A stretch of 64,000 bases of DNA from an uncultured Syntrophaceae bacterium. Its GTDB lineage: Bacteria > Desulfobacterota > SM23-61. The notes under the pieces were generated by a model. That model did not search any database. It was not told the DNA's origin and was given only the letters and a program-made list of their open reading frames with translations. The position numbers and the translations under genes are program-made. The stretch covers positions 1,238-65,237 of the forward strand of contig CAZAGD010000033.1 in assembly GCA_964484485.1 (NCBI GenBank), in the 5' to 3' direction. Positions 1 to 9,654 of this stretch are shown here, in pieces; the stretch's first letter is position 1; every line of letters begins with the position of its first letter.

Positions 1-145
1 AAAATGAAGGGAGGATATTCTTATGCAATTCTTGCATTAATGAGTTGGGAACAAGTGAAGAAATATTCTCCCTTATTCCTGGAAAAAGGATTGATCTTTC
101 AAAGAACAAAGTTATGTCTAGGAAGAGGTAAGGGGGGTTAAAAAA

Positions 146-364
146 ATGGGAAGGAAAATGGTTAAATTTTTTCATGATATTAGAGACTGGGAATTAGAAG
201 AAGTGTTGCAGAAATTTTTAGATAAGGGGCACGAGATTATATCTATACATTATGCGGTCTGTTGGGCTGTGCATGCTCCGTTCGAGGTATATAGTGAAGA
301 TGGAAAGGTTTCTGATAGCTATCCTTTTCATAGTATATTGGTTATTTTCGAAGAGAAAAAATGA
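146..364 (+). CDS. hypothetical small protein (72 aa) overlapping by 4 nt with downstream DUF3987-like gene
   Basis: ORF track; GGGG RBS-like run upstream; translationally coupled (ATGA overlap) to 361..1527; no recognisable motif. Confidence 0.35.
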   Translation: MGRKMVKFFHDIRDWELEEVLQKFLDKGHEIISIHYAVCWAVHAPFEVYSEDGKVSDSYPFHSILVIFEEKK

Positions 365-1527
365 GTTTATTACAATTAGCCAACCCTAAAGATGGGTTTA
401 TTAAAGATTTTATAGAGGTGCTAAATAAGAAAACTGATGCTTCGTTAGCATTTAAGCTTTTCTGCGGAATAGTGCTTGTGGGAGTAGCCCTGGGTAGGAG
501 AATCTGGTTTCCCTATGGAGGGAAAAACCTTTATCCTAATCTTTATGTTTGCCTGTTGGGGGAGAGTGGTATTTCCCGGAAGAGCACCTGCATAAATATC
601 GTGAAGAAGGTTATTAGTCATTTTGAAGAGAATTTAATTGTCTCAGATCAATATTCGCCAGAGCGTTTATTTAAAGACTTATCAGAAAGGTCGCAAGCTA
701 TCTTTCTATATTCTGAATTTGCTGCTGTTTTAAAGTATTTTGAAAGGAGTTATATGGTGGGGATGAAAGAGTGTTTAACTGAGCTTTACGACTGTCCTCC
801 AAAATATAGGCGGAGGTTGCAGAAGGAAGAGATAGTTATTAAGGACCCTGTTATTTCTATTCTGGCGGGGAGCACTCCTGAATGGTTATTTGCAAATATG
901 ACAGAAGAAGATATCCTGGGTGGATTCTTTGGCAGGTTTATTTATGTTATGGAGAGGGAGAGAAAAGAGTTTATTGCTTTGCCGCCTGGAATTAAAGATG
1001 GAGAAATTCACGATTTAGCTGGGCAATTGAATGAGATAAGGCAGGTGGAGGGAGAGGTAAAGATTGATAAGGTGGAGTGGGTATTTGAAAGATTTTCCCA
1101 AGAGAATTATGAAGAAATTTTAAAATCCGGGTCCTCTGGGATAAAAAAAGCTTTTTTAGTGCGGCTCCCTGAGTTTCTCCTCAAAATAGCGATGATTTAC
1201 CATTTTTCTAATTCCAGGGTGCTTAATATTTCGCCTGAAGCGATGAATAATGCTTTGGCTTTAGTAGGATATGTTAAAGAGGCATTAAAGAAGTCTTTGG
1301 AAGAGGACCTGGCCTTGACGCCTGAAATGAGGAACAGGATTAAAATACTTAAGCTTATCCAAAAGGAGCCAGGAATAGAACATGGAAAGCTTTTAAGGAA
1401 TAGCAATTTAACTTCTAAGCAGGTTCATGCCATAATTAATCATCTATTGGAGGAAGGGTCTATTCATATTGAAGGAAAGGGGAGAAAGAATGACCCGAAG
1501 AGGTATTTTGCTGTAAATTTTCTATAA
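361..1527 (+). CDS. DUF3987-like P-loop protein (phage/plasmid primase-helicase associated replication protein) with C-terminal winged-helix
   Basis: Motifs LLGESGISRKST (degenerate Walker A), ILAGSTPEW, GGFFGRF typical of DUF3987/VirE-like replication proteins of satellites and plasmids; C-terminal wHTH-like segment; lies in integrase/tRNA-bounded element. Confidence 0.55.
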   Translation: MSLLQLANPKDGFIKDFIEVLNKKTDASLAFKLFCGIVLVGVALGRRIWFPYGGKNLYPNLYVCLLGESGISRKSTCINIVKKVISHFEENLIVSDQYSPERLFKDLSERSQAIFLYSEFAAVLKYFERSYMVGMKECLTELYDCPPKYRRRLQKEEIVIKDPVISILAGSTPEWLFANMTEEDILGGFFGRFIYVMERERKEFIALPPGIKDGEIHDLAGQLNEIRQVEGEVKIDKVEWVFERFSQENYEEILKSGSSGIKKAFLVRLPEFLLKIAMIYHFSNSRVLNISPEAMNNALALVGYVKEALKKSLEEDLALTPEMRNRIKILKLIQKEPGIEHGKLLRNSNLTSKQVHAIINHLLEEGSIHIEGKGRKNDPKRYFAVNFL

Positions 1528-1611
1528 GTAATTGATAATATTATATATTTTAAAAATCGAATTCGCGCGCGATGTATACCCCCTGTAAGTTACTATAAGA
1601 GTAAGGGATTT

Positions 1612-1790
1612 TTATACGAACGAATTTATTGAATATTTTCTTTAATAATTTCAATATGTTATGCGTTCGTAAATGCGTTCGTAAAATATCTTAGTTACGA
1701 ACGCATTTTTCTGAGTAATATCATAGAATTAGGCTAAAAATTCGTTAAAATGAGTTCGTTCACTTCTCCCTCAAACGAATTCAAAGAAAT
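1612..1790. repeat. AT-rich iteron-like repeat block (TGCGTTCGTAA x2 direct plus inverted TTACGAACGCA; AACGAATTT / AAATTCGTT inverted pair)
   Basis: Read directly: 1659-1683 two tandem ATGCGTTCGTAA, 1696-1708 inverted copy, 1615-1626 ACGAACGAATTT vs 1739-1751 AAATTCGTTAAAA; located immediately downstream of the rep-like gene. Confidence 0.5.
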
Positions 1791-1892
1791 GTCAATTTTT
1801 TGACAAATGAAATTATATTCCTTATATCGCGTGCAAAGATCCTATTTTTTTGATTGACTTAAAACATATGGAAAAATAGAATACCTTAAAAG

Positions 1893-2005
1893 GTTTAAAC
1901 CACCCCCTCCCCGGGTATTAATAAATGGAGTCTCGAAAAGTCTTTCGGATAAAAAATAGTCTTTGAATCTGTCTTCATTCTTCCATGGTGGATTTACTCG
2001 AGATT
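1893..2005 (+). pseudogene. truncated duplicate of the 5' end (and upstream leader) of the AbrB-like gene at 3707
   Basis: ~85% nt identity between 1925-2005 and 3707-3790 (ATGGAGTCTCG.AA.GTCTTT..GATAAAAAATAGT.TTTG.AT.TGTCTTC.TTCTTC.ATGGT...GAGATTA.AA); upstream leaders also similar; copy at 1925 hits a stop after 13 codons. Confidence 0.6.
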
Positions 2006-2057
2006 AGAAGATAGATTATGCGTGAGTTAGCATATTACAAGAAAAGAGGAAAAAATA

Positions 2058-2690
2058 ATGTCTACCCGCTTAGCAGAAATATTCGCAGATGATAAACTAA
2101 CTGAGAAGATAAAAAGACGCTTACCTTACTTATTTCAGCTTGCAGAGTTAGAAAGTTCAAGAGCGGGTAAAACTGGAATGGAAGTTGGCTCAATTAGAGA
2201 AAGGATAATAGTGGCTTTGTTGATTTATAAATTCGGAGAAGAAAATGTGGAAACAGAAATACCGATTACTGAATCAGAAATAGATGCAAAATTATTTGGG
2301 GAGCCTATATCAATCAAAACGATCACGGGTAAGAATTTGGGCGGTGTCAAACTTATATGGACTGTGGATGCTCAGAAGGCAAAAGAATTTCGTGAGAACT
2401 ATTATCCCCATTGCGATATTTTACTTGTTCAAATCAACTGGAATGATAAAGGGGGATTTTATTACATCCCATTATCAACTCAGAAAATGCTTTTTAATAG
2501 AATAGGCAGAGAAAACTATATCAAGCTTCCAAAACCTGGAACAAATCCCAGAGGTGTAGAAATTACTAAAGAGGCATTATCCAGTTTAATTGAAGCAGAA
2601 GATTCAAAAAGCATCTCAATAATCTGGCAAAGAACAAAAATTGAGTTCAATTGCTATAAAAGATGGGTGGATCTATGGAGGGAAGAATAA
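2058..2690 (+). CDS. putative type II restriction endonuclease (R subunit of R-M pair)
   Basis: 210-aa ORF whose stop overlaps the RBS of the downstream methyltransferase; no other family recognisable; assignment by genomic context only. Confidence 0.4.
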   Translation: MSTRLAEIFADDKLTEKIKRRLPYLFQLAELESSRAGKTGMEVGSIRERIIVALLIYKFGEENVETEIPITESEIDAKLFGEPISIKTITGKNLGGVKLIWTVDAQKAKEFRENYYPHCDILLVQINWNDKGGFYYIPLSTQKMLFNRIGRENYIKLPKPGTNPRGVEITKEALSSLIEAEDSKSISIIWQRTKIEFNCYKRWVDLWREE

Positions 2691-2691
2691 A

Positions 2692-3636
2692 ATGGGATTT
2701 AATAGAAGAAAATATGGCACAAAAACAAGTGCATTCGGTTCTCCGGGAAGAATTAATCATGATTCCACTCCTTTTTATACAAGCAAATTGTATGAGGAAT
2801 TGCCCAAAGAGGAGGCAGTCGAATATGTAGAAAATGCCGTTCCATCAGAGTTTATAGATAAAATCATTTGTAAATCTAGTGAAAAAATGAATGAATTACC
2901 TGATAATAGCATTCATTTGATGGTTACATCTCCTCCTTACAATGTAGGAAAAGAATATGACGAGAATCTCACTTTAAATGAATACAGGTCATTCTTAAAA
3001 AGAGTTTGGAGTGAAGTTAGAAGAGTGCTCGTTCCTGGCGGGAGAGTATGTATCAATATTGCTAATCTTGGAAGAAAACCATACATCCCGCTTCATGCTT
3101 TTATAATTGATGATATGCTTGATTTAGGTTTTTTAATGAGAGGAGAAATAATTTGGAATAAAGCATCAAGTGGTAGTCCTTCAACTGCTTGGGGTAGCTG
3201 GCTTTCTGCTAAGAACCCAACGCTTAGGGACATTCACGAATACATTTTGGTCTTTTCGAAAGGAATGTTTTCTAGAGGAAGTTATGTCAAAAGAAAAAGC
3301 ACCATTTCTAAGGAAGAATTTCTTGAGTTTACGAAAAGTGTATGGACATTTGCTGCTGAGCCAGCATCGAAAATAGGACATCCAGCGCCTTTTCCAGTTG
3401 AATTACCTTACAGATTAATTCAGCTTTACACTTTTGAAGGTGAAGTTGTTTTAGACCCTTTTGTAGGAAGCGGGCAAGCTGCAATTGCAGCGATAAAAAC
3501 AAGACGCCACTATGTTGGATACGATATAAACCGAGAATATGTAAAATTGGCGGAAAAAAGAATTAAAGAATTTTCATTAGCGTTTAATGCACCTAAATTG
3601 TTTGAATTCAGAGAGAAATCAGGCAATTTGATATAA
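2692..3636 (+). CDS. DNA methyltransferase, beta-class amino-MTase (N4-cytosine or N6-adenine)
   Basis: Motif IV SPPY (MVTSPPYNVGKEY) preceding motif I FVGSGQ (DPFVGSGQAAIA) = beta-class order; GGAGGG RBS 9 nt upstream of ATG 2692 (ORF track start 2641 probably too early). Confidence 0.85.
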   Translation: MGFNRRKYGTKTSAFGSPGRINHDSTPFYTSKLYEELPKEEAVEYVENAVPSEFIDKIICKSSEKMNELPDNSIHLMVTSPPYNVGKEYDENLTLNEYRSFLKRVWSEVRRVLVPGGRVCINIANLGRKPYIPLHAFIIDDMLDLGFLMRGEIIWNKASSGSPSTAWGSWLSAKNPTLRDIHEYILVFSKGMFSRGSYVKRKSTISKEEFLEFTKSVWTFAAEPASKIGHPAPFPVELPYRLIQLYTFEGEVVLDPFVGSGQAAIAAIKTRRHYVGYDINREYVKLAEKRIKEFSLAFNAPKLFEFREKSGNLI

Positions 3637-3706
3637 TAATTTGGCTTTAAAGGCTTAAATCACCTCAGTCCCGAAGGCTAGAGAGACTGAATGAGGAAAG
3701 AGAGGT

Positions 3707-4099
3707 ATGGAGTCTCGGAAGGTCTTTAAGATAAAAAATAGTTTTTGCATTTGTCTTCCTTCTTCGATGGTAGAGATGCTTGAGATTAAAAAAGGTGATA
3801 GGTGTCAGTTTCTCTTGCTTCCTGGTTATGGGCTTTTAGTTAAGAAAGAAGGAATGGCCGATAGCTTTCATGCGCAAATGGAGGCTATTTCTGATTTGAG
3901 GCAGGAAGCTGATAATATTTTTCATGACTTTAGGCGTAAGGCACGGGGTTTGGTTCACCAGTTTGGTTTTAGGTTAGCTGAAGAATATATTAGTGCCTTA
4001 TTGGATAATTTAAAACGTCCTGCCCAAAGTTTTTTGGCAGAAGAGCAAAAGGTTCCCGACCTTCTTCTAAGTGGGGAAGAAGAAAAGAAGAAGAGTTGA
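3707..4099 (+). CDS. AbrB/MazE (SpoVT-AbrB swapped-hairpin) family DNA-binding protein
   Basis: N-terminus VFKIKNSFCICLPSSMVEMLEIKKGDRCQFLL matches swapped-hairpin beta-barrel pattern; helical C-terminal extension. Confidence 0.45.
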   Translation: MESRKVFKIKNSFCICLPSSMVEMLEIKKGDRCQFLLLPGYGLLVKKEGMADSFHAQMEAISDLRQEADNIFHDFRRKARGLVHQFGFRLAEEYISALLDNLKRPAQSFLAEEQKVPDLLLSGEEEKKKS

Positions 4100-4323
4100 G
4101 CTGAATAAAAAAGGATAGAAAAGATGAAATCATCTTTTAAACTAATCTGCGCAGAAGACCCTAAGATATTAGGAATTGAGAAAAAGAATGGAGATTGGGA
4201 TTAAAACGCATTAGCTGAGCACATAAAAAAATGTGCGGCCTGAAGAGTTTATAAAGAGCAATTAAAGAAGGATTTAGCTAAATTACTAAGGATAGGCTCC
4301 CATAAAAAGAAAGGGCGAGTAAA

Positions 4324-4557
4324 ATGAATAAGAAGCAAAGATGGGTTTTGATTATAGGTGGAATAATCATTGCACAAATGTTATTAAATCCGCCTTTTGA
4401 ATATAAAACTTTAAATGGCGTAACTTATAGTGGGGGATATGGTTGTCTTTTCACGGATTATGGGAGTGGAAAAGGTGTTAATTTAAGTTTATTATTTACG
4501 CAATGGATAGGAGTAATTTTAATATGTGCTATTTTATGGATTGTTTTTAAAAATTGA
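4324..4557 (+). CDS. small membrane protein (2 predicted TM helices)
   Basis: 77 aa, two hydrophobic stretches (VLIIGGIIIAQMLL; GVILICAILWIVF). Confidence 0.35.
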   Translation: MNKKQRWVLIIGGIIIAQMLLNPPFEYKTLNGVTYSGGYGCLFTDYGSGKGVNLSLLFTQWIGVILICAILWIVFKN

Positions 4558-4639
4558 GAATAAAGAATTAAAGCAGTAATTTAGGGGAAAAAGCCATGCA
4601 TTTTTAATCTCTTCTCTTTCCCCAACTAATTATAGAAGG

Positions 4640-5360
4640 GGGTTGAGGGGGAAACGAATTTAGCTGGGGTAGGGGGACTCCAGCGTTAAGAATTTGTTTC
4701 CCCTCATAGCTGCCGCCGCTTTCACCAATGAAAATAGAATGAATGCTAAAGCGGCGAGACCCCGTCCGCCATGATTTTGACGGCTTAGCTGAATAATTAA
4801 GAGAAGAGCGAGAATAAAATTAAATTAAGCTAAAACTTTTCCTTCCCGCAAGGCTCAAGGATTGAGCCCATGGAGAAGGGAAAGTTTTCTCCTTTACAAA
4901 ATTTAGAATAAAGAGGCGGTTTAAAATTGTGCTGGGGGTATCAGGGCTTTGCTTAACCCACTTGGGTGGGCAATTTAGGAAGGGGGTTAAGTGGCCTGAT
5001 ACCAGCCAATTTTGCCTCTTTATTTTAAATTTTGTTTTTTTGGGGGTTGGGTGGGAAAAGAAAAAATTAATCGCGGGGCTTGGGTAAGTGAAAAAATACC
5101 TTTGTTCCGCCCAAAGGCGAAAAAAGCAAAAAGGCTTGGTAGGCCGAGGCTCTGGGTTAAGCCCCCTCCCGCTCCCTATCGGGATCCGGATCCTTGAGGG
5201 CTTAACCTTTCGTCGTTACCGACTCAACCACTCGCCCTTGCCTACAATGCTCCCACCTGGTCGCATTGCTTAACGGCAATGGCTCGGGCAGACCCTCGGC
5301 CTACCAAGCCTTTTTGCCGATCAAAAAAACTTTTTTTCTTACCCAAGCCCCGCAAAAGCT
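4640..5360. ncRNA. candidate large structured RNA or origin-like region: chain of hairpins with nested near-perfect long inverted repeats
   Basis: No ORF >60 aa other than two implausible ones. Hairpins 4644-4704, 4713-4757, 4846-4891. Perfect 11-bp IR 4908-4918/5015-5025 with nested 9- and 8-bp stems. Outer 16-23-bp IR 5073-5096/5330-5353 enclosing perfect 24-bp IR 5126-5151/5293-5311. Recurrent GCTTAAC/GTTAAGC motif. Confidence 0.3.
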
Positions 5361-5965
5361 GCGGCGGCCGCGGCCACATTTTTTTTAATTGAAATTAAAA
5401 CTTTTTAAAGAGAAGCAGTGTAGGATGTTATAAAGGTCTCTCCCAAACCGGGAAACCTCCGCTTACCAGAATAAAGGTAAAAAAGCTAAAAATTAAATTT
5501 TTCCTTTTTTAAGAAATAAGCGAAAGAGACTCGGGCTTAAATTATCGGATTAGCGCAAATATATAAATGCTATTCGAAAAAATGAGTGCGCCATTATACC
5601 AAATCAGTCTTAAAAGATTAGAGATTAGGCTTTAAAATTTGATACCTAACTCAATAATGCTTTTCAAAGAAGATATAAGGCATAGTCAAGTTATAAGTTC
5701 AAGGATTACCTTTAAGCGCTGAGATTTTTCCCGGGATGAATTGAGAAAAAAATTTCTTAAAAAAAAGGGTTCTTCCTTAATTTTGGGGGATGCTTTGATA
5801 TTGTCCGCCATAAAAAGTCTCGTCTAATGGGCTATTATTAAGCCGGGTATTCAAAAAAAATTATTTTTCTATCAAAAAATAATGCTTGACAAGAAAAAAT
5901 TAGTAAGTTATGCTTATAAGTAAGATAGGTATTTAAGATTTAGATATTATGGTGGGGGTGGATGA

Positions 5966-6124
5966 ATGAAAAAGGAAGAGAAAAAATCGAAATCAGTAAG
6001 GTTGCAGGTTCAGCTTGACCCAGAGATAATGAGAGCATTAAGAAGAAGGGCAGCCGATGAATTAAAGACAGTCAGGAAATTAATAATTGAATGGGTGCAG
6101 AGCTGGTCTAAAGAAAAGAAATAG
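5966..6124 (+). CDS. small RHH/Arc-like putative DNA-binding protein (52 aa)
   Basis: ATG 5966 preceded by GGTGGGGGTGG; translation MKKEEKKSKSVRLQVQLDPEIMRALRRRAADELKTVRKLIIEWVQSWSKEKK has beta-strand then two helices typical of ribbon-helix-helix; below ORF-track cutoff. Confidence 0.35.
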   Translation: MKKEEKKSKSVRLQVQLDPEIMRALRRRAADELKTVRKLIIEWVQSWSKEKK

Positions 6125-6157
6125 GATTGGCGGGTGGGCCTGGAAAGGAGGTCCATA

Positions 6158-6280
6158 ATGAAAAAAAGAATAAAGAAAATATTAAGGGAAATCAAAGAGC
6201 AATGCCGTATTGTTATGGAGGATCGGCGGATAAAAGAGAACGATTGGATTGTGGCTCGATTGGGGTTGCATAATATTTAG
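6158..6280 (+). CDS. small basic protein (40 aa), possible partner of RHH ORF
   Basis: AAAGGAGG RBS 7 nt upstream of ATG 6158; MKKRIKKILREIKEQCRIVMEDRRIKENDWIVARLGLHNI. Confidence 0.25.
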   Translation: MKKRIKKILREIKEQCRIVMEDRRIKENDWIVARLGLHNI

Positions 6281-6474
6281 AGCTCTGCGATCTTGGGGAA
6301 AAAGAAGTTGAAAAAGATCCTTGAATAAAAAATTAATGGCGCCACCCGGAACCGGCTAAGGAACCAAGGAGCGCCCGGGCAGGCATGCCAATTAACTGGC
6401 CCACCCACCATTTTATTTATAGCACGGATTGATATGGGAGAGCAATAAAAAATGGAAAAAAATGGAGGTAGTCC

Positions 6475-7539
6475 ATGGGTGTTTATAAAAGGGGGAATGT
6501 TTATTACATAGATTATTATTTTGAGGGAAATAGGATTCGGGAGCGAGTGGGTAAGAATAAAAGACAAGCTGAGTTGGCTCTTGCTTCAAGGAAAGGGGAG
6601 ATTGCTCAAGGGAAATTTAATCTTGAGCGAGTAAAAAAGACTCCTTATTTTGAAGAATTTGCCAAGGAATATTTAGATTGGGCCAAAATCAATCATCGCT
6701 CTTGGGAAAGAATGGATGCAGTGCGGATAAAATGTTTATCGAATTTTTTTTCAGGGAGGCGCTTAAATGAAATCACGCCTTGGCTCATAGAGAAATTTAA
6801 ATCAGAGAGGAAAGATAAAGTAAAGCCGGCGACAATTAACCGAGAGTTGGCCGTGCTCTCGGCCATGCTTTCTCGGGCGATAGAATGGGGGAAGCTTAAT
6901 GAGCATCCTATGAAAGGTGGAAAGGTTAAAAAACTAAGAGAAGATGGCCATAAAGAAAAGATATTAACTGAAGAAGAAGAGAGTCGGCTTTTATCTGTGT
7001 GTAGAGGATGGTTTAAAGAAATGGTGGTTATAGCCTTAGATACCGGAATGCGTCTATCAGAGATAATTGAATTAAAAAAAGAGGATATTGACCTTAATAA
7101 TCATTTAATAAAAGTGAAACATACCAAAAGCGGCAGAGAGAGGAAAATTCCCTTAACTGAAAGAGTATTCTCCATACTGGCAGAGAGGATTAAAGAAGTT
7201 AAAGATTCGGAATTTATTTTTGCCAAAGGAAATGGAAATAAGTTATGGGCTGTAAGGAGTGCCTTTCTTAGGGCTTGTAAGAGAGCTGGTTTTGTTGGTT
7301 TGAGGTTTCATGATCTGCGGCATACCTTTGCTACTCGCTTAGTAACTTCCGGAATTGACCTGGCCACGGTGCAAAAATTACTTGGTCATGAAAATATTCA
7401 AATGACCTTGAGATATTCGCATCCAAGGTCTGAGGATATGAAGCGGGCCATAAAAATTCTTGAGAAGAATGCGGAGAGCAGTCACAAAATGGTCACAAAA
7501 GATGAAATGAAATTATTAAATCTTTGTATAACCCCTTGA
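6475..7539 (+). CDS. int: tyrosine site-specific integrase (phage integrase family)
   Basis: C-terminal catalytic motifs [11 protein letters not shown] and [14 protein letters not shown] (R-H-R-Y); N-terminal arm/SAM-like domain; ends 7 nt from tRNA 3' end. Confidence 0.9.
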
Positions 7540-7545
7540 AATTAC

Positions 7546-7622
7546 TGGCGCGCCCAGCCCGACTCGAACGGGCGACCTACGGATTCGTAGTCCGGCGCTC
7601 TATCCAACTGAGCTATGGGCGC
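7546..7622 (-). tRNA. tRNA-Arg (anticodon ACG)
   Basis: Reverse complement GCGCCCATAGCTCAGTTGGATAGAGCGCCGGACTACGAATCCGTAGGTCGCCCGTTCGAGTCGGGCTGGGCGCGCCA folds as cloverleaf: 7-bp acceptor, D-arm GCTC/GAGC, anticodon loop CTACGAA, T-arm GCCCG/CGGGC, encoded CCA. Confidence 0.9.
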
Positions 7623-7752
7623 GCCCTTAAATAATAAAATACCAGTATCTTTTACCCTTGTCAAATATTGGGTAAAACGCATCTCTCTTTTTTGATCAAT
7701 CCTTCTTGATTGTTCAATAAATTTTATTAGTTATGTTTGTCCAAGAATAAGT

Positions 7753-7917
7753 TTAACTTTTCTTGGAGGTCTTGGTTTGAAAAGTCGTCACCTGCTGCTT
7801 TACTTTCTTACTCTTACAGTCCGGACATTGAAAATCTTTTTTTTCATACTCTTTAAAAGAAATGTTTAAAACAAAAGGTTTACAACAATCTTCGCAAATA
7901 AACTCATAAACAGGCAT
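7753..7917 (-). CDS. FmdB-family zinc-ribbon putative regulatory protein (54 aa)
   Basis: Translated by hand: MPVYEFICEDCCKPFVLNISFKEYEKKDFQCPDCKSKKVKQQVTTFQTKTSKKS; CxxC...CxxC with MPxYEFxC start typical of FmdB family; AGGAGG RBS 7 nt upstream; missed by 60-aa ORF cutoff. Confidence 0.5.
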   Translation of the reverse strand: MPVYEFICEDCCKPFVLNISFKEYEKKDFQCPDCKSKKVKQQVTTFQTKTSKKS

Positions 7918-8112
7918 AAATCATCCTCCTTCTTTTTTAAGAGTTTATCCGCTAAAGCAGAATTCCTTTTTAATATAAGCATGATCAAAAGGGCTATCAA
8001 TGCCAAGGCCTCAAAGAGGCTAAAATTTTTTAAAAATTTTATAGCAGGCCCGTTTATTTTTTCTTTCCTCAAATTATATTTATATTAGCTTAAGGTAAGG
8101 TTTTGAGCAAGG

Positions 8113-8805
8113 GTGATGTCCATGCTTTTATCTTCTTTCCTCGAAGATTTAAGCAGGGAAATATTAAGAATATATGGGCAAATTGATCAAAAAGTTGCTG
8201 CTTTCCAGAAGACTACAGGAATAAAATGCCTTTCCGGGTGTGGCCAATGTTGCGCCTCGGGAAAGGTCAAGATTACGCCCCTGGAGTTTATTCCCTTAGC
8301 CCAGCACTTATTCCAGCGCGGAGAAGCAGATGCCTGGTGGTCATATTTAATTGAAAACCAGGAAGGAACTTGTGTCTTTTTCCGGGAAGATCTAACTAAA
8401 TTTGAGAATGGGCATTGTACAGTATATCCCTGGCGGGCTGCTACTTGCCGTTTATATGGGTTTGGAGTAAAACAAAATAAATACGGGAATCTCGAACCAA
8501 TCACCTGCCAATTTTTGAAAAATGATTTTTATAAGGCAATCAAGGACTTGGATAAAACTAATTCAAAAGATCTATGCCCGAGCTATGATTCTTTTATGGT
8601 TCAAATCGCCTCTCTTGACCCCCTCTTAAGTAAAAACCCCCTACCTGTAAATCAGGCAATTGCTAAGGGTTTAGAAAAATACGCCTTAGTTTTTCAAATA
8701 AATTCTTCCAGAGATTATTTCAATCCTCCAGAATCCGTTCCCTATTTCAATGGCCCTGATTTAACTGAAGGAAATATAAAAGGAAATTCAAGAAGCGAAA
8801 ATTAA
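8113..8805 (+). CDS. YkgJ/UPF0153-family Fe-S or zinc-chelating domain protein
   Basis: CLSGCGQCCASGK (CxxCxxCC) plus downstream Cys cluster GHCTVYPWRAATCRLYGF. Confidence 0.5.
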   Translation: MMSMLLSSFLEDLSREILRIYGQIDQKVAAFQKTTGIKCLSGCGQCCASGKVKITPLEFIPLAQHLFQRGEADAWWSYLIENQEGTCVFFREDLTKFENGHCTVYPWRAATCRLYGFGVKQNKYGNLEPITCQFLKNDFYKAIKDLDKTNSKDLCPSYDSFMVQIASLDPLLSKNPLPVNQAIAKGLEKYALVFQINSSRDYFNPPESVPYFNGPDLTEGNIKGNSRSEN

Positions 8806-9654
8806 GATGACCAGCCCCGCCATTAATAAAAGGCATCCTGGCCAAACCTCTTTAACCCATTGGGTTTCTTTAAAGAATAAAGAACCGACGATCAAAGTCA
8901 TGGGAATCTCAATCTGTTTTACAGCCTCTACATAAGCGGCCACGGATTTAATATAGCCAAAACTGCCAAATATGGTAGCAAAGGCGGCAAAAAACCCCAG
9001 GCTTAAAAAGTAAACAAAATAGCGAGGAAGGAGATACAGATGCTTTGCTGATTGGTAAATAACTATGGGAAAACATATCGCTGAAGCAAAAATATAATTG
9101 GTTAGAGTAGAAAAGAAAGGATCGCCTAATTGGGCAGTTTTCTTAAAAAGGAGAATCGTCGGAGTAAGAGTTAAGGCGGCCAGAAGGGCATAGCGCATTC
9201 CTTTGTCCCGGATTAGAAGAAGCAAGGGCTCGAGCAAAGAGACCCGAGCCTGTCTTATATTTAGTAAATAAATACCCAAAAAACTAATAATTATCCCCAG
9301 GCCTCCCCAAAAATTCACGTTTTCATCTAAGAAAATTACGCCGCAGATGGCCAAAAAAATTACTTGCAGCTTCCAAATAGCTACGGTAACGGAGATGGCC
9401 CCATATTTAAAAGACTTAGATAAGAGAAGGGTGGAAAAGACCTGCATCAATCCAGCCAGAAAAGAATAAATCCAATAGTCCCTACCAACCTCAGGGAGGC
9501 CTTTAAGATAACTGGCGGCCAGAGCAAACGGCAGCAGAAAGAAAAACCTTCCCCAAACATTAATATATTCATCTAAACTATGCCCCAATTTTTTCATGGT
9601 AGCATTTCTGCCTACTTGGCATAAGGCAGAGGCTATGGCAAAAATCCACCACAT
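8788..9654 (-). CDS. EamA/DMT-superfamily membrane transporter
   Basis: 288 aa, ~10 hydrophobic helices, duplicated EamA-like halves. Confidence 0.55.
   Translation of the reverse strand: MWWIFAIASALCQVGRNATMKKLGHSLDEYINVWGRFFFLLPFALAASYLKGLPEVGRDYWIYSFLAGLMQVFSTLLLSKSFKYGAISVTVAIWKLQVIFLAICGVIFLDENVNFWGGLGIIISFLGIYLLNIRQARVSLLEPLLLLIRDKGMRYALLAALTLTPTILLFKKTAQLGDPFFSTLTNYIFASAICFPIVIYQSAKHLYLLPRYFVYFLSLGFFAAFATIFGSFGYIKSVAAYVEAVKQIEIPMTLIVGSLFFKETQWVKEVWPGCLLLMAGLVILIFAS

Follow-up and report, generated by a model that had tools for sequence, protein, structure and literature searches.

We observed that a 64,000-nucleotide (nt) stretch of DNA from an uncultured Syntrophaceae bacterium (contig CAZAGD010000033.1, positions 1,238 to 65,237; hereafter the window) carries a restriction-modification (R-M) gene pair, R and M, between two imperfect direct copies of a sequence that comprises the leader and first codons of a small AbrB/MazE-like gene. 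Our main reading, to which we give a probability of about 0.68, is that a ThaI-type R-M cassette inserted at the promoter-proximal part of this gene and is now flanked by the duplicated target. The locus sits on a small tRNA-Arg integrative element. The kind of system is already known, as it is an R-M insertion with target duplication and not a new type. Instead, it is the chimeric structure of the repeats that may lift the locus above a routine case and that may record repeat-mediated R-M movement between related elements.

The alignment of the two copies that had been proposed alongside the original prediction places their similarity far above chance. Without gaps, positions 1925-2005 and 3707-3787 are identical at 67/81 sites (83%), rising to 85% across the first 60 nt, which agrees with the ~85% predicted for 1925-2005 and 3707-3790. 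The runner-up match to the reference copy among the 81-mers of the 64-kb window, on both strands, reaches 40/81 (background mean 21, standard deviation 4.1). In a repeat search of the first 8 kb, no direct repeat was longer than the pair 1925-2028 / 3707-3810 (spacing 1782). The leaders, predicted to match over ~30 nt, are identical at 23 of the first 32 aligned nt (P about 1e-6 at a 30% background) and at 60% across 43 nt, plus a 22-nt indel that leaves the downstream leader with 22 additional nt (3685-3706). At its maximal extent the repeat spans about 1877-2028 and 3637-3810, with a core at 1886-2011 / 3646-3793; its right edge is fuzzy because the last 20 nt match at just 11/20 (P 0.017). 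The duplicated target measures 130-175 bp and includes the -10 region, the 5' untranslated region (UTR) and the first 28-34 codons of the AbrB-like gene. Two copies of the repeat are present in the 64-kb window, and the repeat region gave no match in a tRNA search and none in an Rfam scan of window 1-9000, which returned tRNA only. The arrangement was reproduced at 99.2-99.8% identity in independent contigs of other samples: L002 covers window 1-4635 at 99.8%, and the 2.75-kb contig L022 covers 1257-4006 at 99.4% with both repeat copies together. Since the repeat/R-M structure was assembled independently in other samples, it is not an assembly artefact.

Next, we compared the locus with its relatives. 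The AbrB-like family comprised 11 clusters among 5.8 billion proteins and was found at 12 metagenome loci. At all 11 of the other family loci (11/11), the gene forms a single uninterrupted promoter-leader-gene unit, with no stub and no adjoining R-M genes. Both window copies align to this single unit, for which L004-L011 and L012-L019, with one unit each, served as empty-site comparisons. Because relatives carry one unit without a stub or R-M genes, these data identify the R-M pair as the insertion. A search for an uninterrupted AbrB-like gene in related islands, suggested beforehand, thereby returned a single copy in every related element, and a stub standing without R-M genes was looked for among the family loci and not found. 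Of the two mechanisms proposed in the original prediction, insertion with target duplication is upheld by the single-copy relatives and by the target sequence on both sides of the insert; repeat-mediated exchange gains indirect support from the chimera pattern described below.

The closest R-M-free relative is L006, together with near-identical siblings, and its AbrB-like protein is 76% identical at the amino acid (aa) level. Distant members (46-53% aa) share a conserved upstream TTGACA-17-TTAAAT promoter, two GCTTA(A) repeats, a GC hairpin, a Shine-Dalgarno sequence and the ATG. In L012-L019, ~100 nt upstream of the AbrB-like genes are conserved with a hairpin, GGCTCCCC...GGGGAGCC, which is unusually strong for a leader. 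The elements are mosaic, with swapped Rep and Int modules and segment identities of 84-92%. The exact window AbrB-like protein occurs solely on short contigs or beside R-M genes. In the databases searched, the same element without R-M genes was not found, the window DUF3987 protein having no other relative above 51% aa. The AbrB-like family alignment had no match in the genome collection, viral contigs had none by leader DNA pattern or family alignment, and neither the cassette DNA nor the AbrB-like protein had a match in the plasmid collection.

R (2058-2690, + strand; 210 aa) is a ThaI-family Type IIP restriction endonuclease by profile and structure-sequence match. It covers positions 1-203 of the 203 in the Pfam ThaI profile (PF15514; E 1.3e-98), and 208 of its 210 residues align with residues 17-224 of the crystallised R.ThaI (PDB 3NDH; E 1.4e-88). 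These matches overturn the earlier statement that R lacks a recognisable nuclease motif and is of unknown specificity. A Shine-Dalgarno sequence, GAGGA, sits 8 nt upstream of the R start. ThaI cleaves CG^CG, and we take CGCG to be the expected site of this R as well; since the match to both the Pfam model and R.ThaI is full-length, R would be expected to cut CGCG. In this respect the window resembles the ThaI system of Thermoplasma acidophilum, while its M partner is classified by family only (N6_N4_Mtase). M (2692-3636, + strand; 314 aa) is a beta-class N6/N4 DNA methyltransferase in which SPPY precedes FVGSG (Pfam N6_N4_Mtase, E 1.5e-47). Its nearest solved relatives in a PDB search include a TTHA0409-like methylase and N4-cytosine methyltransferases, and M probably protects CGCG by cytosine methylation of the N4 type (N4-methylcytosine, m4C). 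M starts 1 nt past the R stop, has its own Shine-Dalgarno sequence, and ends in ~9 codons that fall outside the part conserved in other cassettes.

R and M fill the interval between the copies, just as predicted, and no other real open reading frame (ORF), no transposase and no integrase was found between them. The insert is about 1.6 kb long (2012/2029-3636) and consists of a 30-45-nt 5' UTR, R and M. It is essentially the R-M pair alone, because homology to the closest other ThaI cassette, L024 (81% nt identity), runs over window 2016-3608. No ORF lies between the stub and R, and hence there is no C-protein controller gene upstream of or overlapping R. The locus differs in this from C-protein-controlled R-M systems, as the sole regulator-like gene lies 3' of M and belongs to another fold class. 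GC content is 35.5% in the cassette, 37% in the island and 44% in the remainder of the window. Avoidance of CGCG, considered as a sign of long R-M residence, was ruled out: the window holds 148 such sites, with an observed/expected ratio (O/E) of 1.12 and no depletion. Without CGCG avoidance, an active R therefore needs an active M.

Insertions of R-M genes with long target duplication were reportedly described by Nobusato et al. in 2000. The criteria published for this class are R and M inside an insert of <20 kb, no other mobile elements, repeats >30 bp, and alignment of both repeats to a single empty-site sequence (PMC2853133). Reported duplications measure 46-423 bp, with copies 93-100% identical (Furuta, Abe & Kobayashi 2010, PMC2853133). 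Judged on these features, our locus fits the class. It has homologs of both R and M within a short insert (about 1.6 kb) without mobility genes; its flanking repeat of 130-175 bp exceeds 30 bp and goes well beyond the length of transposon target duplications; a single empty-site copy, here from related elements, aligns with both repeats; and the repeat is unique in its surroundings, being neither a tRNA/att sequence nor multi-copy. In contrast to the published cases, the window copies are 83% identical, where 93-100% is typical of the class though no formal criterion, and they are chimera-like. The target is also different, as it comprises the promoter and gene start of a small integrative element, whereas the published targets are chromosomal and intergenic. 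Moreover, the empty site does not come from a conspecific strain, and the host is uncultured, while cultured bacteria supplied the published cases. No case from archaea was kept in the published screen (PMC2853133).

To place the cassette within its family, we searched for relatives of R. At E<=1e-10 there were 4131, and the best 120 of these are 80-100% identical and are named from Fervidobacterium, Thermoplasmatales, Thermodesulfobacteriota, Nitrospirota, Elusimicrobia, Bacteroidales, Methanoliparum and others. Even between very distant phyla of bacteria and archaea, the ThaI-type R proteins (P0012-P0131; loci L026-L093) keep 80-86% identity. Scanning species-representative genomes with R gave 68 loci, from similarly varied bacteria and archaea. 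Judged from these identities, the ThaI-type cassette is very widely transferred and its restriction enzyme is unusually well conserved.

We also screened the 1-kb R-M flanks of the window, L024, L025 and the 68 loci for repeats; 50 non-window loci had R, a nearby M and both flanks. Significant flanking repeats were present in 5/50, and they are unrelated between loci. The repeat of L057, in an Ignavibacteriales genome, is direct and 220 nt long at 85% identity (3162-3380 / 5051-5266); nearby, part of a nucleotidyltransferase gene is likewise present twice (3029-3092 / 6598-6661). L064, in a Spirochaetia genome, has a 170-nt repeat (91%) within 750-6052, where five repeats at 0.9-1.8-kb spacing form an attC-like array. 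In L085, from a Bacteroidia metagenome-assembled genome (MAG), the repeat is 113 nt long (73%), and the attC-like flanks (3373-3478 / 4994-5102) end in GTTAGCG and GTTAGGT. L091, from a WOR-3 MAG, has a direct repeat of 25 nt at 100% (3408-3432 / 5022-5046), and the flank screen found one of 25 nt at 96% in L047. The L091 repeat overlaps the stop codon of a 1127-aa gene, R and M there are both broken into pieces, and the decayed cassette still ends in an attC-like AACGGCGTATAA. By its sequence, L091 may be a second target-duplication insertion of the ThaI cassette family. As only L091 and perhaps L047 resemble target duplications, with no empty site to compare, the screen reveals no general rule of flanking repeats for ThaI cassettes.

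In L064, L024 and L085, the ThaI-type R-M pair forms one cassette of an attC-like array. The L024 array holds a canonical GCCTAAC...GTTAGGC site (6082-6148), and its contig also carries a TIR-domain cassette. GTTAG(G/A) boxes lie 31-36 nt before R in L031, L032, L037 and L058, as does GTTAGCA in the window (2026-2032, + strand), 32 nt before the R start. This box resembles an integron attC R' core and is likely the 5' edge of the cassette; GTTAG boxes occur at this position in 5-6 of 47 loci, and the window's GTTAGCA is one base off the G|TTRRRY consensus. Small Type II systems are enriched in integrons (bioRxiv 10.1101/2024.07.02.601686). Like the R-M and defence cassettes of integrons (bioRxiv 10.1101/2024.07.02.601686), the window unit is compact, with R and M co-directional and no predicted promoter before R, and its relatives L064, L024 and L085 lie between attC-like repeats. 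Unlike them, the window has no attC, attI or integron integrase, and its flanking repeats are target sequence. These comparisons suggest that the window cassette probably descends from an integron cassette yet did not enter by integron recombination.

The two copies differ in which parts of the promoter-leader-gene unit they carry. Overlapping the upstream copy is a sigma-70-like promoter, TTGACT-17-TAGAAT (1854-1882, + strand), which matches at 10/12 positions, is the best and the only strong one in 1500-4700, and is homologous in the family alignment to the conserved TTGACA promoter preceding the AbrB-like gene in relatives. The leader part of this copy (1877-1924, + strand) contains the -10 box, CCTTAA-N4-GTTTAA repeats, the palindrome GGTTTAAACC (1892-1901) and a C-rich tract, and lacks the 22 nt that bear the hairpin 3' arm and the Shine-Dalgarno sequence. 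Its coding part (1925-2028, + strand), of the sequence type marked by ATGGAGTCTCGAAAAGTCTTTCGG..., is a dead 5' stub of the AbrB-like gene. The stub translation reads MESRKVFRIKNSL up to the first stop and ICLHSSMVDLLEIRR up to the second. The first stop is codon 14, in line with the 13 codons foreseen, and the second is codon 30. Residues invariant in the family are changed (K8R, P18H). There are 14 private substitutions in the first 87 nt, 5 synonymous and 9 non-synonymous with two stops, a pattern compatible with neutrality at few sites (dN/dS; P 0.13-0.35). At the stub/R 5' UTR boundary, the cassette 5' junction with the AbrB-like 5' end reads GAGTTAGCATATTACAAG and shows the microhomology (C/G)AGTT.

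Homology of the downstream copy starts in the -10 region, directly after the M stop codon. Its leader part (3637-3706, + strand) contains TAATTT, GCTTTA-N4-GCTTAA repeats, a hairpin with arms CCTCAGTC (3663-3670) and GACTGAatGAGG (3685-3696), and the Shine-Dalgarno sequence GGAAAGAGAGGT; GGCTTTAAAGGCTTAAATCACCTCAGTCCC is the signature of this leader type. The repeats are 48 nt from the ATG, equal to the spacing in distant family members, which also share the hairpin and the Shine-Dalgarno sequence. A perfect extended -10 element, TGATATAAT (3629-3637, + strand), was read from the sequence across the M stop codon, with no -35, and is a possible secondary promoter candidate that would give the AbrB-like gene its own start. 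A scan of 1500-4700 requiring a -35 found no promoter-like site from stub to R or from M to the AbrB-like gene, and the promoter/terminator scan of the same range found no terminator-like site from the stub to the start of the AbrB-like gene.

The first ~85-104 nt of the intact AbrB/MazE-like gene (3707-4099, + strand; 130 aa) are the downstream repeat copy. Its protein matches Pfam MazE_antitoxin at E 0.015, under the gathering score, and NCBIfam doc_partner at E 1.3e-5, under the cut-off of that model, while the family-alignment profile reaches AbrB in the PDB at E 0.8. An AlphaFold model of low confidence (mean predicted local distance difference test, pLDDT, 58.7) has an N-terminus ordered beta-beta-alpha-beta-beta, as in the swapped-hairpin fold. 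The top Foldseek matches of this model are MazE, VapB, SpoVT and AbrB, none of them significant (best E 0.088). The label AbrB-like, assigned from the sequence at the outset, is consistent with the fold order; with profile matches below cut-offs and non-significant Foldseek matches, it is best kept as provisional.

We then asked which copy L006 resembles at the sites that differ between the window copies. L006 agrees with the upstream copy at 16/17 leader sites and with the downstream copy at 14/15 coding sites (Fisher 7e-7), and the switch falls between -1 and +11, at the ATG. A 22-nt gap, which removes the hairpin 3' arm and the Shine-Dalgarno sequence, is common to the upstream leader and L006. 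Private divergence is 16/43 (37%) in the downstream leader compared to 14/87 (16%) in the stub (P 0.014). On this pattern the copies look like reciprocal chimeras relative to L006, not simple decayed twins. The route of entry that we favor, although at slightly less than even odds overall, is homologous recombination near the ATG with an R-M unit bearing a diverged allele. The shared indel and the unequal divergence follow from such a crossover and are not expected from complementary decay of twins; unequal divergence is expected of a diverged functional allele because non-coding sequence diverges faster than coding sequence. Homologous exchange is also plausible because the elements are mosaic.

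By this favored route, two illegitimate junctions, one between codon ~30-34 and the R 5' UTR and one between the M stop and the -10 region, would have formed earlier, in a related element. In the simplest version, an R-M circle with the order M-leader-5' codons-R would then integrate by a Campbell-type single crossover near the ATG. The upstream copy would afterwards consist of the resident (L006-type) leader and the donor coding stub, and the downstream copy of the donor leader and the resident coding sequence. The passages of PMC2853133 on this subject cite Sadykov et al. 2003 and Kobayashi 2002 for Campbell-type integration and for repeat-mediated amplification and release of R-M units. Like the products of such integration, each of the window's direct repeats would be a recipient/donor chimera with a single switch point (relative to L006). 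Unlike them, the window comes with no observed circular intermediate, donor allele or tandem amplification, and it has complementary decay as an alternative. More tentatively still, the chimeric repeats might record release and re-insertion, in which an R-M circle leaves one integrative element and enters a related one at a conserved gene start. This step of the R-M life cycle is hypothesised, without experimental evidence, according to the originators of the class (PMC2853133). If it took place here, the long target duplication would be a portable homology arm that moves a promoterless, formerly integron, R-M cassette among diverged mobile elements.

Several observations weigh against this account. 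The copies are 83% identical, as opposed to 93-100% in the published long-target-duplication cases (PMC2853133), and the empty site comes from related elements (AbrB-like protein 76% aa or less), not from a strain with the same element. No donor allele and no circular form were seen in the sequences searched. Outgroup polarisation conflicts, as site 10 unites the window copies and sites 12 and 45 place L006 with the downstream copy; ancestral states are no more frequent in the stub than chance would give (3 of about 8, with about 2.7 expected). With two stops and changes at invariant residues in the stub, a long time must have elapsed under any scenario. Finally, a leader/coding switch at the ATG is also predicted by complementary decay, and the arguments opposing it are just two, the unequal divergence and the polarity of the 22-nt indel. 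In that alternative, which we consider improbable though the most serious competitor to recombination, the target was duplicated in situ and decayed without later recombination: the upstream copy kept promoter and leader but not its coding part, and the downstream copy kept coding sequence and Shine-Dalgarno sequence as the remainder of its leader drifted. It needs the fewest events, every feature that defines the published class (PMC2853133) is present, the private changes of the stub fit neutral decay (P 0.13), and function itself predicts a boundary between conserved and decayed parts at the ATG. Yet it needs an independent, identical 22-nt deletion in the upstream copy and in L006, or else a lucky insertion of 22 nt into the downstream leader that restored the family's 48-nt spacing, the hairpin and the Shine-Dalgarno sequence. 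Relaxed halves should also decay equally, which is hard to reconcile with 37% compared to 16% (P 0.014). A somewhat less probable explanation, combinable with either insertion route, is that L006-type relatives are secondary products of R-M loss through recombination of one repeat with the other. L006 is exactly an upstream leader joined to downstream coding sequence, with its switch between -1 and +11. It also has no Shine-Dalgarno sequence before an otherwise conserved gene (dN/dS about 0.35 compared to the window gene), for which the gene caller picked an internal start (P0002). However, other scenarios give the same pattern, and L006, with its differing Rep module and integrase, does not descend directly from the window element. 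At site 10, moreover, L006 has the outgroup state and both window copies share the derived state.

Two further explanations fare worse. Insertion into the AbrB-like gene by an integron integrase acting on a secondary GTT site, followed by a rearrangement that restored the gene, is very unlikely. It would account for the cassette relatives in attC-like arrays (L064, L024, L085), for the GTTAGCA box shared in position with the GTTAG(G/A) of L031, L032, L037 and L058, and for a junction target of CAG|TTT. It is largely refuted by the missing attC: a scan for the RYYYAAC...GTTRRRY motif and fold found no attC between M and the next gene, and in window 1-9000 it gave an unrelated site at 4951-5052. 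The repeat unit was also considered as an attC or structured site and rejected, as it folds no better than shuffled sequences (z -1.2 and -1.0 on the two strands). In addition, no integron integrase is present, the island integrase scoring far below cut-offs, and integron recombination does not duplicate 130-175 bp of target. Chance similarity or an assembly chimera, for which nothing speaks except the metagenomic source of the sequence, can be counted as refuted. Against it stand 67/81 identities where the window maximum is otherwise 40/81, a stub translation that agrees with the N-terminus of the AbrB-like family, and the independent contigs from other samples that span both copies.

The insertion of a ThaI-type cassette with target duplication suggests how the locus might work. 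Transcripts started at the resident promoter (1854-1882) would cross the untranslatable stub, continue into R and M and probably reach the AbrB-like gene, the upstream copy presumably having retained the resident promoter and leader, which now precede the R-M genes. The insertion spared the regulator, because the downstream copy retains a ribosome-binding site and the whole gene. R would cut unmethylated CGCG and M would protect it. The pair may restrict incoming DNA and penalise loss, thereby defending the host and stabilising the element, as do other Type II systems on mobile elements. Both leaders keep paired GCTTAA-like repeats just 3' of the -10. Should the AbrB-like protein use these as its operator, it would regulate the R-M operon along with its own gene.

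To the R-M insertions with long target duplication, the locus contributes a clear example that comes from an uncultured lineage and is carried by a small integrative element. With the R-M genes set behind a resident promoter and the regulator gene spared, it offers a simple recipe by which a promoterless defence cassette could settle in a mobile element. ThaI-type cassettes in attC-like arrays and the attC-less, repeat-flanked form seen here are together useful for studying how R-M genes move without a transposase. If the chimeric repeats do reflect homologous re-insertion, the hypothesised release and re-infection step would be directly testable in the source samples.

The host element begins with a gene for a DUF3987 and winged helix-turn-helix (wHTH) protein, which by its domain matches is replication/primase-helicase-like (361-1527, + strand). 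It is directly followed by about eight iteron-like ACGAAC/GTTCGT repeats (1560-1800), presumed to be the origin region, with a perfect 14-nt palindrome pair at 1671-1684 / 1695-1708 and CGCGCGCG at 1564-1571. Of the 17 mismatches between L022 and the window, 14 fall within 1523-1647, and L006 has another repeat, CTGTTGCCA, behind its different Rep gene. After the repeat/R-M/AbrB block come a 77-aa gene, a non-coding block (4605-5863), a ribbon-helix-helix (RHH)-like small ORF and a tyrosine integrase (6475-7539, + strand). The latter is not an integron integrase (82.7 bits against TIGR02249; cut-off 265), and it adjoins the tRNA-Arg(ACG) found by tRNA search at 7546-7622 (- strand), which forms the attachment-site flank.

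The non-coding block 4605-5863 is 84-92% identical to L004-L009, contains very stable predicted hairpins and has no Rfam match at E<=1; its part 4605-5154 (~92%) is better conserved than the neighbouring protein gene (84.6%). Candidate roles of the block are a structured RNA, an origin and an att region, and it is almost invariant among the available sequences, which show too little variation for a covariation test. Within it, a ~135-bp segment (5155-5288) lies between 29-nt inverted repeats (5126-5154 / 5289-5317; 97% complementary) with outer arms at 5073-5118 / 5308-5353. This segment is oppositely oriented in L004, L005, L008 and L009. In L004, positions 4853-4661 align with window 5126-5318 on the minus strand (87.6%), and the flanks align on the plus strand. 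By this arrangement, 5126-5317 looks like an invertible DNA switch.

Over the full length of the window, CTAG is strongly depleted (20 sites, with 113 expected; O/E 0.18) and ACGT moderately so (0.64). L006 shows an exact 79-nt terminal overlap (1-79 / 9045-9123), as for a circular 9.0-kb molecule; because the overlap lies in the inverted-repeat region, it may be an effect of assembly. Chromosomal-type genes adjoin the same element in L004 and L005. Finally, an IS21-family element (IstA 496 aa, IstB 258 aa; 81-2550) interrupts the AbrB-like gene of L020 at codon 45, and P0011 is a truncated fusion ORF that results from this insertion.

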